A DNA stretch of 25,814 bases from a virus. Its lineage: Duplodnaviria; Caudoviricetes. This document shows, piece by piece, positions 5,269-13,008 of the stretch (the first letter of the stretch is position 1; each line of letters begins with the position of its first letter). A program made the position numbers and the translations under genes. Location of the stretch: positions 1 to 25,814 of IMG/VR virus record IMGVR_UViG_3300008116_000247. One strand, 5' to 3'. The notes under the pieces are model-generated. The model was not told the DNA's origin. It saw nothing but the letters and a program-made list of their open reading frames with translations, and did no database searches.

Positions 5269-5601
5269 TTGGCAACTACAGTATACGACGTAGAAGAAAT
5301 TAAATTACAAAATGGCGAAACAATCCAGTTGAAGCCACTATCAATTAAGCAGCTGCGTAAATTTATGGCAGCAATGAATAAGGCTCAAGAAGCCACAACA
5401 GAAAATGAATCATTAAGCGTACTTATTGATGCATGTGCTATTGCTTTGGAAACACAACTACCAGAATTGGTAAAAGATCGTGATGCCTTGGAAGAGGCTC
5501 TTGATGTTCCAACAATTAACAGAATTCTTGAAGTATGCGGAGGAATTAAACTCGACGACCCAAACCTAATAGCGGCGGCGGTTCTGGCTGGTCAGAACTA
5601 G
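5269..5601 (+). CDS. Tail assembly chaperone (gpG-like)
   Basis: Lies between tail tube and TMP. TTG start with AAGGAGGA RBS. IQLKPLSIKQLRKF motif. Slippery site near the 3' end. Confidence 0.88.
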   Translation: MATTVYDVEEIKLQNGETIQLKPLSIKQLRKFMAAMNKAQEATTENESLSVLIDACAIALETQLPELVKDRDALEEALDVPTINRILEVCGGIKLDDPNLIAAAVLAGQN

Positions 5602-5611
5602 ACCTTGCCGC
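5559..5611 (+). promoter_or_regulatory. Programmed -1 ribosomal frameshift signal
   Basis: In-frame C CCA AAC heptamer (5559-5565), 6-nt spacer, then stem-loop 5572-5611. The -1 frame is open to 5927. Confidence 0.85.
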
Positions 5612-5927
5612 ATTAGTTAAGGAAGTTTTTCTTTTAGGATCTTGGATAAACTACCAAGACCTAGAAGAAAGCCTCTCTCTTCCAGAGCTTTTGCAAACGT
5701 TAGAAACGATGCAAAAGAAAGAGAGGGAAAACAAAATATTCTTGGCATCTCTACAAGGAGTAGACCTAAGAGATGAGCAAGATCAAAAAGGTCCAACCTT
5801 CGATGATATCCGATTGAAGGCCATGGGGATAAATGCATCAACGGATGATGTGGTTTCTCTTCAAGGGTCATTCGCCGCAGAAGCGGGATTCGGAATCAAT
5901 GCAGGACTTGGATACTCTAAGGAGTAA
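5565..5927 (+). CDS. -1 frame extension of the chaperone (gpT part of gpGT fusion, ~219 aa in total from 5269)
   Basis: The -1 frame reads PNSGGGSGWSELDLAALVKEVFLLGSWINYQDLEESLSLPELLQTLETMQ...GLGYSKE*. It is open well upstream of the ORF-track start at 5691, which has no RBS. Confidence 0.85.
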   Translation, partial: PNSGGGSGWSELDLAALVKEVFLLGSWINYQDLEESLSLPELLQTLETMQKKERENKIFLASLQGVDLRDEQDQKGPTFDDIRLKAMGINASTDDVVSLQGSFAAEAGFGINAGLGYSKE

Positions 5928-5938
5928 TAAGCATATAA

Positions 5939-8900
5939 ATGGCTGATGAAAAAATTGTAACTAGTATAGTTGCTAATTCTGATTTTTCAAATCTTATTGC
6001 AGATGTGCAACGAGTTACGACCAGTCTATTTAAAATGCAGCAACAGTTTGCTGGAGCTAACAGATCTCTTGCAGGACAGATTGATGCAACGAACGCAATG
6101 TTCAAAGAGACAATGCTCAAGACTGGGCAGTTCTCTTCACACTTTGTTAGCTTAACTTCTGATGTAGAAAAGTTTGGTAGAAATCTAGATGGCGGTAGAC
6201 TAAAGCTAAAAGATTACTTTAGAACATATCAAGAGCATGCTAGAACAAGCGGCGGTCTTATAAGAGACCTAGCTAAACAACAGGTACAATTACAAAATGC
6301 TGTATTGCAACCCCTAGGAAGAAATTCCCAGGGGCTTATGCAATATAACGTGCATATCCCTCGTGGATTAGATTTAACTAAGAATAAAGCATCATTGTTG
6401 AAGCAAGAGCTTCAGATTATGAATAAGGTTATTCAGGATGGCGGAGTTCAACTTATTAACTGGGGTAAGAATACTCAATGGGCAGGTCGTCAGTTAACAG
6501 TAGGTTTAACTTTACCGTTAGCTGCATTTGGTAAAGCTGCGGCAGATGCATTTAAAGTAGCAGATCAAGAGCTAACTCGTTTGACTAAGGTTTACGGAGA
6601 TGTGGCAGGAACATCAGCACAAGAGCTAGGAAAAGTAAGAGAAGAAGTTTCAGCAACAGCTAAAGAACTATCTGCGGCTATGGGCGTTAACTTTGCAGAA
6701 ACTATCGGTCTTGCTGCAGATATTGCTGCTACTGGTAAAACTGGAAATGAATTACTTGGATCATTAAAAGAAACTACAAGACTAGCAGTTCTTGGTGAAG
6801 TTGATAGACAAGAAGCTATGAAAGCAACTCTTGCAGTACAGTCAGCATTTAGACAAGACACTGATGAGCTAGCGGACTCAATTAACTTTTTAAACGCAGT
6901 TGAAAACCAAACATCAACAACCCTTAATGATCTTGTAGAAGCAATTCCAAAAGCTGGGCCAGTTATAAAAGGTTTGGGTGGAAGCGTACAAGATTTAGCT
7001 CTTTATCTTACCGCTATGAGAGAAGGCGGAATTAACGCATCAGAAGGTGCAAATGCTTTGAAGTCTGCTCTAGCTTCTTTGATTAACCCAACAGATGTTG
7101 CGGTGGATAAGTTTAAAGGATTTGGAATTGATCTCCTTGGAATTGTAAAGAACAATGCTGGTGATGTTACAGCTACATTATTTGCTTTACAGGCAGCCCT
7201 AGATAGATTAGATCCACTACAAAAGCAACAGGCAATCGAGCAGCTTTTTGGCAAGTTCCAATTCTCACGTTTGAATGCTTTGTTTGAAAATCTAGGAAGA
7301 CAGGGTAGCCAGACTCTACAGGTTCTAGATCTAATGAGTGCTAGCGCAGGTGAACTTGAAGCCGTAGCAAGCCGAGAGTTAACAGCAGTTACTGAATCTG
7401 CTTCTGGAAGATTCCGCAGAGCATTGGAAACTTTAAAGGCAGAAATGGCAGGAATAGGCGATGACTTCCTAAATATTGGAACTAAGCTTATAAATGTATT
7501 AGGCAGCATTATAGATTTTGCACAAAAGCTACCAGATCCAATTAAAAAAGTTATAGCATTTGGAGGAGCATTTACTGCAATCATAGGTCCAGTAATTATG
7601 CTTACTGGTGTTCTTGCTAACTTCTTTGGATACATAATTAAAGGTCTTGGTCACTTCAAAGCTCTATTTAAAGGAGCAGAAGGATTTAAACTCCTTACGC
7701 CAGAGATCATGGCGGCTCGTGCAGCAAGCGAGCAATTAGGAAATGAATTTTATAGCGACGCTAGAGCAACAGATACTCTTAGATTAGCAATTGAAAAATT
7801 AAATGAAGATCTTTTGCTACTTCAACAAAATGCAGTAAAGGCAAAGTCTGCTACTGAAAGTCTTGGAAAAACAATTGTAACTGCTGCTGGAATGCCTATA
7901 TCTACAATGGGCGGGCCAAGAATAGTTGATCCTTCACACCCATTACTAGGCGGAACATCAAGAGCAGCAGCTCACCTAAATCCTAGAAATCCAAATGATC
8001 CTTCTTCAATATTTGGATTAACAATGCAGCCAATTCCTGTAAATAGAAAGATTGGCGCAAACCCTCAAATATTAATGTCTGAAAGATTGCCAGATGTTCC
8101 AGGTCTTACAACAATTGGCGGAGTTTCAACAGGCGTTGTAGCGGAAGAGCATGCAAGATATGCAGCACTTATGGGAACACTTGGAGTTCAAAGCAAGCAA
8201 GAAATTGATGCTCTAAAGAAAATTATTGGACTGGGAGGTCAAGTATCAAAAGAATTAATTGATACATTTGATGACATACTCCCTATTACTCAACAACTCA
8301 CAGCTAATGCTGCTAAGCAGTCTGCACAAATTGTTGCTGAATTAAAAGCTGGCAAATTAAATGTAGAGCAAGCACGTGCAGCAATTATTGCGGTAAACGC
8401 CGATCTTGAAAGATCCATGGGCATGCAGATATCATCTTATGCGGCAGCTCGTGGAAGAACAATTGATTTAACTAAGGCTCCTCTGATCGATCAGCCAGTT
8501 GTTGATGCCGCTGGAAAGCCAAATGTTCGTGGTCAATTCCGTCAAGGTATTTTCCAGGATGTTATGTCTGCGCTTGGCAAAGCTACAAGAACAAGAACAA
8601 TGGGCGGTCCATATAGCATTGAAACAACTAAGCCTCAGGGATTAAATGCTGGCGGACAAGTTTATATGTCTAGTGGAGCAATAGTTCCAGGACCAAATGT
8701 AAATGCAGACGTAGTTCCAGCAATGCTAACTCCAGGAGAATTTGTTGTAAATAGAGAAGCGACAGCTGCTAATCTTCCATTACTACAAGCAATAAATGGA
8801 AGCGGATCAAATGGTCCAGGATACAATAATGGAAGTAATGGCTCTATAAGAAGCACACAATATGAAGATATGGTGGAGCCAAGATTAACTGGAATAACTC

Positions 8901-11900
8901 CTGAAGAAATGTCACGACTAGCTCCTGGAAGATTTAGAGGAAGTAGATCCTCTTATAGAGTTAGAGGAACTGCTGGTGTTTATTTAAATGCAGTCACAGA
9001 CCCAGCAATTATTGCTAAGTATCCTTATCTAAGCACAGATGGAAGAACAATTAGTGTTGAGACTTTGAATGCCAGAATGGCTGCAGGAGGACTACATCAC
9101 GAAGTTTATGAAGCTGCGATGGCAGCATCAAGAAGCCAATATGCTGGCTCGTCAGATCAATTATTAAGATCGCTAGCACAAAATGGAATTATTACTGAAA
9201 GCGAAGCTAGCACAATTTCTCGTGATATTGATTCTCAGTTTAGAAGAAGTATACGTAGTCAAGTTGGAGTAAGAGATGCCAACAATAGATATTGGTCAAT
9301 ATCAAATAGAGTTATAAATAGAGCATTAGCTAATAACAGTAGAGCACTTGGATTCTGGAATGAATTTTCTAGCCAACCAGCATACATAGTGTCAGAGTCA
9401 TTGCGTTCAAGCGGAGAACCAATGAGAAGCCCAAGCATGGAATTGAGAAGACTAACGCATAATGGAGAGTCAATAAGCATACCTCCTCTTAGAGGCAGAA
9501 GAGGCGAATCATTTTTTGCACATTCAAAAACACCTACTCCATTACTAAATAGATTAATGAATGCTGGAATTACAACTCTTGGCCGCAGAGCCCTGCCATT
9601 CAGATTTACCAGAAGAAATTCTGGTGGAATAATTGGAATGAACCGTGGCGGAATGGTTCCTGGATATCAAGAAGGCGGGCAAGTAGATTGGTCAAGAACT
9701 CCTTTCGGCAGAGGATTTGGTCCATCATTCGCATTACCTGAAGAAACAACACAATCAGTAGCACCTCGTCAAAGATCTTTTGGAATGGGATCAATGCTTG
9801 GAACCTCCCTACTTTCTATGGGAGGATTTTCTGCAGGATCTGCATTAGGCTCTAGATTTGGACAAACAGGATCAATGGTTGGTGGAATGCTTGGAAGCAT
9901 GCTTGTTCCATCATTGATGGGTGGACTTGGAGGAATGGGACGAGGAGCGGATCCTCAGGTCTATTCAGAAAAATTAAATAAATCTGTAATGGCACAAAAA
10001 CAATGGGCTCAGTCAGCTGCTGCAGCGGCAGGACAAGGAAAAGCTTGGGGAAGAATTTTAACTGGCCTAATTGGTGGATTAACTAAAACAAACTTAATTA
10101 TTGGCGGAGTTACTCTTGCAATAACTGGAGCTGTTAAAGTATGGCAAAATTACAATGAAACTCAAAGACTAAGTGCTGCTGCATTTGGTATGACAGCAGA
10201 TTCTGCACAAAAAGCAGGACTTAAATTTACGGATTACGGACAAAAAATTAAAGATGCTGTGTTAGCACAAAAGCTTATGATAGATCAGAATAAGCTGACG
10301 TACGACAGCATGCAGTCTGCAGGCACACCATTTAAGATGACTATTGCAGAATATAAGAAGCTTCGCAAAGAAATAAAAGAAACTATGGAGGAGCAGATTA
10401 AGGTTATCAATGCTACCTCAAGGCCAGATGCAGCACGAGTTGCAGCTCAATTAAAAGAGCAATTGATGGCTGCTGGTCTATCTGCAGAAGAAGCTTCCAA
10501 GAGAATTTATACTTTGTTTAATCTTTCAAATAAAGCCAATATGGCCATCAATGTATTAAACACTGCAAAGTTTAGAGAAATTGTTGACGCACAAACAGCA
10601 GCAGCAAGCGCTGTGGATTCATTTAATTATTCTAGAAGTTTTGAAAATACAAAAGATCAAGCGTCAGCATTAAATACAGCTTTAACTGCTCTTAATACAG
10701 GCGTTGAAGATCTATTTACTAAGAGCGAAAAGGCGGCTAAGAAGAAAGGCGAAAACTTTGACGAGACTGCAGCAAGATATGAAGCAGAGCAAAAACAGAT
10801 AGATATAATTTCTAGCAAGGTTAAAAACCAGGAGCAAATAGGTCAAGGCGTTCTTAATAACTTAAAAAAGCAAAATCCAGAAATAGCTAAGTTCCTAACC
10901 TCATCAGATACGGTTGTTAGCATATTCCAAAAGCTAAGACTTGTTGCAATGGGTTTTACTGGAGACTTGTCTAAGTTAAACGCAGAACAAGCAGACCAAG
11001 TTTATAAACTTCAAATAGCAACAGCCAAGGCTGTAGAAACATCTAACAGGGGAGGGCTATTAAAGTCTCAGTATAAGATTCTTGGAGACTTAAAGAGTCG
11101 TAGAGATGCCTTAGAAAAATCTGCTAAGGGACAAAGTGTAAAAGAACAGATTGATATCAAGGAGAGGCTAAAGCTTCTTGATAAGGAAGTTAAAAAGATT
11201 TATGACAAAGCAGATGCCCGAAAGAAAGCTCTACGTGAGGAAGCTCAGGCAGAAGATGTAGCTCTAAGACTTCAGCAACAGAGAGCAGAATATGAGAAGC
11301 GTGTTGCTTCTGGAGACTTTGGCGGCGCAGCTGAATCACAAATTGAAATTCAAAGAACTCTTAATGAGCAGCAACTTGTAATAGCTGAACAGCAAATAGA
11401 CGCTGCTGCAAAGAGACAGGCAAAGCCATTTGAGCGTGAAAGAGAAAGAATACAAAATGCTCAAGAAGACATGGCTAATAAGGCTGCTCTTGCTGCTGAG
11501 AGTCTAGATTCTATAAATAAACAATACACAAAGCAAAAAGAAAAAATTGATAATGTTAATACTTCAATGACATCTTTGCACATGGCCCTTAAGTTAAATG
11601 CTAAAGACATAGAAAAATTTAAAACAACAAAAGAATTTAAGGGATTGGCTGCAGACTTTGTGGACGCTCTAAAGGGTGTAGGCGTTAATATGCCAGAGTA
11701 CAGCTATTCAGGTGGCGGAATGCCAACTAGAACAGATGTTGGGACATTTGCATTAGATCAATTAAATAAATTTGGCGCAGGTATAGATTCTATATTAGCT
11801 CAAAATGATGTTACTGTAACAGCTAATGGAGACATTATAATTGATGGAAAGAAATTAACTGACGGCAAAGATAGTGATCTAAGGTATACAAGAGAAAATC

Positions 11901-12520
11901 CATTGAAGGTTACTAGTGTTCCTGGCGCAAAATCTTATGAAACTCATAAAGAAGGAGATAAGGCTGGAAGATTAACAACTGAAGGTGGCAAAGCATTAAT
12001 TAAAGATAGAAAGCTAATGCCTGGAGAATTTGTTGAGTATAAGGGAGTCTTGTATAGAATAAAGCAGCCACAAGGAAACATGGACCCAAGTTCATGGTCT
12101 ACAGTTGCTCAGAAGGCATCTGGCGGACTACTACGTGGTCCAGGAACTGGAACCTCTGATTCAATAATTGGTATGTATGCAAATGGCGGAATGGTAAGAG
12201 TATCCAATGGCGAATACATCGTAAACGCAAAGACTGTATCTAAATTAGGAGTTCCATTCTTTGACCGTATAAATGGTATGAAAAATGGCGGACTTATGCT
12301 AAACTATGATATACCAAAGTATGGCAGCGGAAACGAATTAATTCAAGCAATGGCGTATCAGCCAGACATGGGCGGAACTGTATATAATGTTGGAAATGTT
12401 ACTATGCAATTCGCAGAAGCGCCAGCAAATGGCAAGCAGCTATTTGAAGAGTTTAAGACTGCTATGGCTTTGGAACAAAGAAAATCTGGTACACAGATTA
12501 ATATGAGCAGGAGATATTAA
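5939..12520 (+). CDS. Tape measure protein (2193 aa, TP901-family core) with internal cargo domain
   Basis: Follows the G/GT chaperone. Ala/Leu/Lys helical composition, TP901-type core (~aa 190-500), hydrophobic segments, and two copies of the GPG..D...GE[FY][VI]VN motif. Confidence 0.93.
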   Translation: MADEKIVTSIVANSDFSNLIADVQRVTTSLFKMQQQFAGANRSLAGQIDATNAMFKETMLKTGQFSSHFVSLTSDVEKFGRNLDGGRLKLKDYFRTYQEHARTSGGLIRDLAKQQVQLQNAVLQPLGRNSQGLMQYNVHIPRGLDLTKNKASLLKQELQIMNKVIQDGGVQLINWGKNTQWAGRQLTVGLTLPLAAFGKAAADAFKVADQELTRLTKVYGDVAGTSAQELGKVREEVSATAKELSAAMGVNFAETIGLAADIAATGKTGNELLGSLKETTRLAVLGEVDRQEAMKATLAVQSAFRQDTDELADSINFLNAVENQTSTTLNDLVEAIPKAGPVIKGLGGSVQDLALYLTAMREGGINASEGANALKSALASLINPTDVAVDKFKGFGIDLLGIVKNNAGDVTATLFALQAALDRLDPLQKQQAIEQLFGKFQFSRLNALFENLGRQGSQTLQVLDLMSASAGELEAVASRELTAVTESASGRFRRALETLKAEMAGIGDDFLNIGTKLINVLGSIIDFAQKLPDPIKKVIAFGGAFTAIIGPVIMLTGVLANFFGYIIKGLGHFKALFKGAEGFKLLTPEIMAARAASEQLGNEFYSDARATDTLRLAIEKLNEDLLLLQQNAVKAKSATESLGKTIVTAAGMPISTMGGPRIVDPSHPLLGGTSRAAAHLNPRNPNDPSSIFGLTMQPIPVNRKIGANPQILMSERLPDVPGLTTIGGVSTGVVAEEHARYAALMGTLGVQSKQEIDALKKIIGLGGQVSKELIDTFDDILPITQQLTANAAKQSAQIVAELKAGKLNVEQARAAIIAVNADLERSMGMQISSYAAARGRTIDLTKAPLIDQPVVDAAGKPNVRGQFRQGIFQDVMSALGKATRTRTMGGPYSIETTKPQGLNAGGQVYMSSGAIVPGPNVNADVVPAMLTPGEFVVNREATAANLPLLQAINGSGSNGPGYNNGSNGSIRSTQYEDMVEPRLTGITPEEMSRLAPGRFRGSRSSYRVRGTAGVYLNAVTDPAIIAKYPYLSTDGRTISVETLNARMAAGGLHHEVYEAAMAASRSQYAGSSDQLLRSLAQNGIITESEASTISRDIDSQFRRSIRSQVGVRDANNRYWSISNRVINRALANNSRALGFWNEFSSQPAYIVSESLRSSGEPMRSPSMELRRLTHNGESISIPPLRGRRGESFFAHSKTPTPLLNRLMNAGITTLGRRALPFRFTRRNSGGIIGMNRGGMVPGYQEGGQVDWSRTPFGRGFGPSFALPEETTQSVAPRQRSFGMGSMLGTSLLSMGGFSAGSALGSRFGQTGSMVGGMLGSMLVPSLMGGLGGMGRGADPQVYSEKLNKSVMAQKQWAQSAAAAAGQGKAWGRILTGLIGGLTKTNLIIGGVTLAITGAVKVWQNYNETQRLSAAAFGMTADSAQKAGLKFTDYGQKIKDAVLAQKLMIDQNKLTYDSMQSAGTPFKMTIAEYKKLRKEIKETMEEQIKVINATSRPDAARVAAQLKEQLMAAGLSAEEASKRIYTLFNLSNKANMAINVLNTAKFREIVDAQTAAASAVDSFNYSRSFENTKDQASALNTALTALNTGVEDLFTKSEKAAKKKGENFDETAARYEAEQKQIDIISSKVKNQEQIGQGVLNNLKKQNPEIAKFLTSSDTVVSIFQKLRLVAMGFTGDLSKLNAEQADQVYKLQIATAKAVETSNRGGLLKSQYKILGDLKSRRDALEKSAKGQSVKEQIDIKERLKLLDKEVKKIYDKADARKKALREEAQAEDVALRLQQQRAEYEKRVASGDFGGAAESQIEIQRTLNEQQLVIAEQQIDAAAKRQAKPFERERERIQNAQEDMANKAALAAESLDSINKQYTKQKEKIDNVNTSMTSLHMALKLNAKDIEKFKTTKEFKGLAADFVDALKGVGVNMPEYSYSGGGMPTRTDVGTFALDQLNKFGAGIDSILAQNDVTVTANGDIIIDGKKLTDGKDSDLRYTRENPLKVTSVPGAKSYETHKEGDKAGRLTTEGGKALIKDRKLMPGEFVEYKGVLYRIKQPQGNMDPSSWSTVAQKASGGLLRGPGTGTSDSIIGMYANGGMVRVSNGEYIVNAKTVSKLGVPFFDRINGMKNGGLMLNYDIPKYGSGNELIQAMAYQPDMGGTVYNVGNVTMQFAEAPANGKQLFEEFKTAMALEQRKSGTQINMSRRY

Positions 12521-12522
12521 TA

Positions 12523-13008
12523 ATGACAAACGGAAATAGAACTACCTATTTACCTAGAGGATCTGCAATTCAGGTATATGCTAGAGACCTTTATGCCAAC
12601 CCTGCCGATACTACAAAAGACTGGATTAAATTAACTGAGCATAATAGAAGCGAAATTTCTATTACCCCAGAAAGAATTGAGCAAACGCAAAGAATGGGCA
12701 ACGGATCTTTGCGTAAATTCTTTGTTGCAGATAAAAAACAATTTAGCGTATCCTGGAGAATGTTGCCAGGAACTAGAGGATATACTGTTGATGGACAATG
12801 GGGAGCTTTAGACCTAATTGAATTCTATAACAGTAGCGAGGGGCAATCAACTTTTGATATTAGACTAAACTTTGCTAAGAATGGCATGAATCAAGAATCA
12901 TCAGGATATGAGCAATACACAGTATCTTGTACTTCTTTTACCGCCACCCTTATTAAACGAGGCGAAGTTCCTTTCTATGATATATCATTCTCAATGGAGG
13001 AAGTATAG
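12523..13008 (+). CDS. Distal tail (Dit-like) minor tail protein
   Basis: First gene after the TMP. IEQTQRMGNGSLRKFFVADKKQFSVSW and terminal YDISFSMEEV are typical of this class. Confidence 0.72.
   Translation: MTNGNRTTYLPRGSAIQVYARDLYANPADTTKDWIKLTEHNRSEISITPERIEQTQRMGNGSLRKFFVADKKQFSVSWRMLPGTRGYTVDGQWGALDLIEFYNSSEGQSTFDIRLNFAKNGMNQESSGYEQYTVSCTSFTATLIKRGEVPFYDISFSMEEV

Follow-up and report, generated by a model that had tools for sequence, protein, structure and literature searches.

The tape measure protein (TMP) of phage T5, pb2, is cleaved, and the cleavage frees an enzyme domain (10.1101/2022.09.20.507954). In actinobacterial contractile injection systems, effectors of the Sle1 type consist of a TMP-like helical carrier with variable domains, one of which is presumed to act on nucleic acid (PMC13277306), and in phage ICP1, intron-borne HNH homing endonucleases place an HNH-type nuclease in the TMP gene and are exchanged between isolates (PMC10055350). 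The DNase Tde1 of a type VI secretion system has its nuclease beside a glycine zipper, which its authors also find in TMPs (PMC10240207). The core of His-Me finger nucleases is defined by a His-bearing strand, a second strand and an Asn-bearing helix (PMC5714182); neither "permut" nor "tape measure" occurs in the text of this review. Here we describe a domain embedded in the TMP of a Caudoviricetes virus from a common group of lake phages (IMG/VR record IMGVR_UViG_3300008116_000247, positions 1 to 25,814; this whole stretch of 25,814 nucleotides is called the window).

The TMP of the window (2193 aa; 5939..12520; this and all other features given below lie on the + strand) carries a swappable globular domain at aa 969-1226 (8843..9616), hereafter the slot. 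The model, the conservation and the exchange of this domain point to a likely circularly permuted His-Me finger nuclease with a helical bundle. On balance, we believe that the slot is an exchangeable folded cassette of the TMP, likely a His-Me finger (HNH-like) nuclease with its His strand at the C-terminus, which is likely freed and carried into an actinobacterial host.

A compact domain with invariant residues inside the TMP

The TMP was assigned by its match to PF10145 (E 1.3e-29), by PHROGs TMP families and by the surrounding gene order, which is the same as in Streptomyces phage Elmer; the list of open reading frames (ORFs) and PHROGs place it in a siphophage tail block with tail genes directly on both sides. 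The slot sequence recurs letter-identical in two further records (L001 and L087) and is therefore not an assembly error. All full-length protein matches to the slot are TMP-like and hold it at the same position. An earlier note on this DNA, made from the letters alone, had described the domain as globular, and the AlphaFold2 model (39-row alignment) bears this out: it is a compact alpha/beta domain with a mean predicted local distance difference test (pLDDT) of 90.8 and a predicted template modelling score (pTM) of 0.85, which rules out the reading as extended helical scaffold. The motifs quoted in that note, including those bracketing the domain, all lie at the positions given there.

Across the 54 sequences of the window subfamily, in which identity falls to about 27%, N1044, D1113, N1116 and H1195 are invariant and R1156 is nearly so; the His, Asn and Asp are thus strictly kept. 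Asn1044 (9068..9070; 53/53), a predicted metal ligand, lies in a helix (model residues 81-89), Asp1113 (9275..9277) is present in 54/54 and Arg1156 (9404..9406; 48/53) possibly contacts phosphate. The strand at aa 1192-1195 (9512..9523; DSSP strand 233-236 of the model) ends in His1195 (53/53), which would serve as general base from the C-terminal end of the domain, and the strand at aa 1013-1016 (8975..8986; DSSP strand 54-57; G1013 in 48/52) is the predicted second strand of the finger. Two features that define the His-Me finger, an invariant His ending a beta-strand and an Asn or His in the core helix, are therefore represented by H1195 and N1044 in both conservation and model, but the linear order of strand-His, strand and helix is not followed, as H1195 comes 151 residues after N1044.

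Exchange of the slot between close relatives

By our estimate, about 1200 IMG/VR stretches match the TMP scaffold. From 166 loci, 102 distinct slots were retained after short, truncated and duplicate ones had been dropped (minimum 190 aa), and these fall into 13 divergent groups; in comparisons of slot and scaffold, global identities below about 25% represent background. In the pair L089 and L088, DNA identity is 94-100% over the 900 nt upstream, 36-45% in the slot and 85-98% after it, and protein identity, taken over windows of 40 aa, is 100% in the six that precede the slot, 12-25% within it and 82-100% from 40 aa past its end region. The scaffolds nearest to that of the window (74% upstream and 76-77% downstream) carry slots at 24-25%, that is, at background, and the nearest slots (52-55%) sit in distant scaffolds (37-43% and 26-29%). 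These alignments show that the slot is exchanged as a cassette between close relatives, between conserved brackets with GG motifs.

The upstream bracket (xNxGG...VPAM-TPGEFV; aa 902-953; 8642..8797) is kept across homologs, and a motif like it occurs in 29 GenBank phage records, most of them annotated as TMP. It is followed by a Gly/Ser/Asn linker with YNNGS (aa 954-968; 8798..8842); the first 10 residues of the model have low pLDDT. The downstream bracket consists of three xNxGG-type repeats (aa 1226-1247; 9614..9679), candidate cleavage sites that recur after the slot in homologs. Some TMPs, among them L039, L049, L051, L054, L007, L009 and L101, have a second module just after the slot; in the stretch scanned, an LFGxxGLxP motif was found in 16/102 and a DPLHGP motif in 2/102.

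The earlier note had proposed a swappable payload slot and had suggested a comparison for conserved flanks around unrelated domains. The conserved flanks and the exchanged content, as in L088 and L089, uphold the swappable slot, but most replacements are related to one another: from their sequences, they appear to be remote relatives within a single His/Asn family, some of them circularly permuted. As in polymorphic toxins, a constant carrier bears an exchanged enzyme domain; the adjacent variable immunity gene of such toxins was not found in the window, where tail genes adjoin the TMP on both sides.

The main rival to an injected nuclease is a selfish, in-frame nuclease of the homing type that works in the producing cell, cuts the rival allele during co-infection and spreads by gene conversion, with the TMP as its safe harbour. 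The sharp exchange at the DNA level between near-identical flanks would suit such an element, and HNH homing genes have been reported inside phage TMP genes, there as spliced introns (PMC10055350). We nevertheless regard homing as unlikely: the reading frame is continuous, the brackets are protein-level motifs that are also used for cell-wall enzymes, and the relatives show replacement of one version by another and no filled versus empty alleles, a comparison limited by the 190-aa extraction minimum. A group I or group II intron was rejected on the same continuous ORF and on Rfam, which gave 0 matches at E<=1 in 5500-13000.

His-Me finger pattern and circular permutation among the slot groups

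The pattern RxH...N is invariant in group A1 (22/22), as is H...N in groups A2 (20/20) and A3 (11/11), and a hand-picked motif alignment of 24 members likewise has an invariant His and Asn. By eye, several A1 slots read DRGH or QRGH, and group C1 reads ESEH. In the model of an A1-type slot (pLDDT 84.5), the His closes a strand, a second strand follows, and the Asn sits in a helix that precedes further helices. The residue order of A1 to A3, taken with this model, therefore matches the core pattern of the His-Me finger (PMC5714182). The ESM Atlas neighbours of one C1 motif are toxin families of the HNH/EndoVII kind (GH-E, AHH, Tox-GHH2 and Tox-SHH) at 0.83-0.86, which we use as a lead only; the slot of the window itself has unnamed matches at 0.81-0.83. 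In L025, a C1-like slot apparently lacks the His motif and is possibly an inactive copy.

Two further groups carry the same residues in another order. Group Bp (4 members) aligns to A1 at 97% (11-155 to 43-166) from the second strand onward, and its next match pairs a C-terminal RGH with the N-terminal RGH of A1 (223-235 to 16-28; weak on its own, E 0.024). Group Bg (9 members) aligns to A2 at 95%, with a next match (205-227 to 90-112) that is also weak alone (E 0.068). Bp and Bg together have an invariant early Asn and an invariant late His. These profile alignments show Bp and Bg to be circular permutants of A1 and A2 in which the His strand has moved to the C-terminus. A helical block common to groups C1, C2 and D (61-68%) stands before or after the motif, a placement that weakly suggests further permutation.

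Named families were not recovered by database searches. The slot of the window has no Pfam or PHROGs family and is unmatched among 50,697 GenBank phages; two sets of 48 and 24 homologous slots gave no informative match in Pfam, nor did motif pieces in Pfam, PHROGs, PADLOC or PDB sequences. Foldseek returned 0 matches at E<=0.001 for both models, and the VIA fold search gave no match (best Z 4.8, 3.7 and 2.5); both align structures in sequential order, and the finger is a small element. Profile searches would miss the family because its motif is split. When profiles were compared with three known His-Me families, the known families themselves failed to link or linked weakly.

Arginine and lysine composition

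The composition that had drawn attention to the domain was confirmed by recount: aa 969-1226 contain 34 Arg and 2 Lys (K1027 and K1197), which are also the only Lys of a longer, lineage-specific Lys-poor stretch (aa 899-1344; 8633..9970), whereas Lys makes up 8.1% of the rest of the TMP and 6.2% of 19 other ORFs. Among 5000 residue shuffles of the TMP, none gave a 446-aa window with <=2 Lys (minimum 9), and one gave such a 258-aa window. AGA accounts for 29/34 Arg codons in the slot; it is one transition away from AAA, a Lys codon. As a defining feature of the domain, Lys avoidance does not stand: among 21 homologous slots, Lys numbers 12-23 in the 17 that share 45-58% identity and 3-9 in the four nearest, most orthologous slots contain 10-27, and the median over the 102 slots is 13 (range 2-29). 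At most 5 Lys are found in 13 slots, spread over 5 clusters, and at least 10 in 67. In 79 of the 102 TMPs, the slot has a smaller Lys/(Lys+Arg) ratio than the part upstream of it, and the depletion is far stronger inside the slot than in the scaffold. The Lys fraction of the slot rises with that of the remaining TMP (rho 0.46) and falls with guanine-plus-cytosine (GC) content (rho -0.32), the sequences being related and not independent, and low-Lys slots form no single clade in a midpoint-rooted tree. Judged from these counts, low Lys is a real and recurrent trait of lineages, arising largely by change from Lys to Arg-AGA, and not a requirement.

Loss of Lys could nonetheless be an adaptation, in some hosts, against pupylation, acetylation or a Lys-specific protease, which would be compatible with an injected nuclease. 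The recurrence of low-Lys slots in 5 clusters and the contrast with the scaffold speak for it, as do the TMPs of Streptomyces phages Elmer and Muntaha (L242 and L243), which have no slot and whose aa 601-800, the equivalent pre-membrane region, are also without Lys. The many slots rich in Lys, the correlation with the same TMP and with GC, and the scatter over the tree argue against it, and we hold this adaptation to be about as improbable as homing.

A possible route into the host cell

Downstream of the slot lie a glycine-zipper-like segment (aa 1280-1335; 9776..9943), with 8 GxxxG in aa 1280-1345 and a hydropathy peak at 1313-1331, and a hydrophobic segment (aa 1377-1402; 10067..10144; Kyte-Doolittle peaks 1.35-1.48), a candidate membrane helix. 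By analogy with T5 pb2, we propose that processing occurs at the xNxGG repeats; by analogy with Tde1, the glycine zipper and the hydrophobic segment would bring the freed domain across the membrane before the genome. There, His1195 may act as general base and Asn1044 as metal binder, with the helical bundle and an Arg-rich surface holding nucleic acid, and the domain would attack nucleic acid of the host, or of a rival phage, in the cytoplasm. An arms race, over the substrate or over inhibitors, might then lie behind exchange and permutation. A broader proposal, which we put forward tentatively, is that, in an abundant clade of freshwater actinophages, the TMP serves to inject polymorphic nucleases: a His-Me nuclease made in advance would be cut out at the GG sites and reach the cytoplasm before the genome, and would have been diversified by cassette exchange and repeated independent circular permutation.

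Near its C-terminus, the TMP has another copy of the GG...GE motif (aa 2059-2118; 12113..12292), which carries no cargo here. In L002, CHAP and LysM come after this copy; the site, empty in the window and cargo-bearing in L002, is a second cargo site. In the loci L197-L241, the TMP-like ORFs are very long, the GG...GE motif occurs several times in them, and Pfam matches almost nothing between the copies; they are possibly multi-cargo carriers.

Weighing the nuclease assignment

The residue order of the window subfamily, with N1044 early and H1195 late, is that of the permuted groups. Its profile scores 25.0, 28.0 and 22.5 against Bg, Bp and A3, respectively; 20 column shuffles for each reached at most 20, and four scaffold decoys for each reached at most 20.9. 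In a search with the window core profile over slots and decoys of 85 TMPs, two Bp slots rank top by best-domain score (E 0.012 and 0.043). Six helices and then a strand follow the Asn in the window and A1 models alike, and in covariation, from a shallow alignment with an effective depth of 31, the cross-strand pair L1016-F1192 takes rank 20 among 20746. At the sequence level, the link of the window subfamily to the RGH groups is weak.

Several points weigh against the assignment. With 26.9, one scaffold decoy (group A2) reached the level of the true pairs, HHalign probabilities between the window subfamily and the RGH/EH groups are 0.7-12%, and in the search with the window core profile, the slots outside the subfamily did no better as a set than decoys. 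The subfamily has no RGH or EH motif, neither an Arg nor an acidic residue ahead of the His, and no second helix ligand at +4/+8. A folded domain of 250 aa needs unfolding to fit the lumen of the tail, and a nuclease would have to spare the phage's own DNA.

These points leave room for the window subfamily to be a different enzyme fold that shares only the slot, with its His and Asn present by chance, as the weak profile links and the missing motifs would allow. We judge this slightly less probable than homing, since the three weak links fall in the same register and match the order of secondary structure, and two sister groups have demonstrated C-terminal His strands. Less probable again is a pilot that binds nucleic acid without catalysis and accompanies or protects the genome on entry; the Arg enrichment, the lower Lys/(Lys+Arg) of most slots and the missing second metal ligand would suit it, but a His, Asn and Asp strictly kept over 54 sequences, with the His and Asn kept through permutation, fit an active site. 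The R-S-E order of an ADP-ribosyltransferase seen in the earlier note (YR, YLST and HHEV do occur in that order) was rejected and deserves hardly any credence, as R1007 is present in 27/54, S1032 in 8/54 (the stretch is deleted in 16) and E1055 in 25/54, the Glu lying where a helix begins in a mostly helical model. From sequence and model together, a nuclease is the likely identity of the window domain.

Host and genome context

Among cultured phages, those of Streptomyces have the closest TMPs, at 37-40% across the N-terminal part; of 373 records, 127 are Streptomyces and 105 Gordonia. Among four related virus records searched, whiB is present in two, both of the complete ones; it was not found in the longer record of the window itself, which is 35% complete. 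Because relatives carry whiB and resemble Streptomyces phages, an actinobacterial host is likely, in agreement with the earlier suggestion. The TMP contigs L244-L246 were binned in metagenome-assembled genomes (MAGs) of Bacteroidia and Rhodobacteraceae, probably by binning contamination, and L247 in an Aquiluna MAG. In the distant TMP of L246 (1688 aa; 45% identity at the N-terminus), an RGH slot of the A1 type can be made out by eye behind the GE motif, and the slot family therefore reaches beyond the clade of the window phage. Upstream, at 5269-5927, a tail assembly chaperone is followed by a short ORF of the overlapping style, which would be the usual frameshift arrangement.

Comparison with known systems

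A full-text search, judged on titles and abstract openings and with subscription journals largely outside it, found no published description of the slot. Enzymes on TMPs are known as openers of the cell wall; if our reading is true, an exchangeable nuclease directed to the cytoplasm would let long-tailed phages, which are without large ejected head proteins, strike before any gene expression. The natural pair L088 and L089, with identical scaffolds and permuted active sites, would allow direct tests of how circular permutation evolves.

The TMPs of Elmer and Muntaha have the GG...GE motif on both sides of a C-terminal cargo region and are without the slot; that cargo we take, by eye and not by domain scan, to be cell-wall enzymes. 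Together with T5 pb2 (10.1101/2022.09.20.507954), these TMPs resemble that of the window in having an enzyme domain beside a hydrophobic stretch. Unlike their C-terminal cell-wall enzymes, the cargo of the window is polymorphic and nuclease-like and lies inside the protein, on the N-terminal side of the hydrophobic segment.

The Sle1 systems are bacterial contractile particles with C-terminal cargo and an adjacent immunity gene (PMC13277306), whereas the window belongs to a siphophage of the lytic type with internal cargo and no adjacent small gene. The homing nucleases of ICP1 are spliced out (PMC10055350); the window domain is in frame, with no intron match. Tde1 belongs to a different nuclease family (Ntox15) and delivery system (PMC10240207). 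With the His-Me finger nucleases (the NucA/EndoG DRGH group, GH-E, AHH, Tox-GHH2 and Tox-SHH; PMC5714182), the slot shares the His that ends a strand, the predicted second strand and the Asn in a helix, and its sister groups share RGH or EH; unlike these nucleases, the window domain has an extra helical bundle and places its His strand about 150 residues after the Asn helix.

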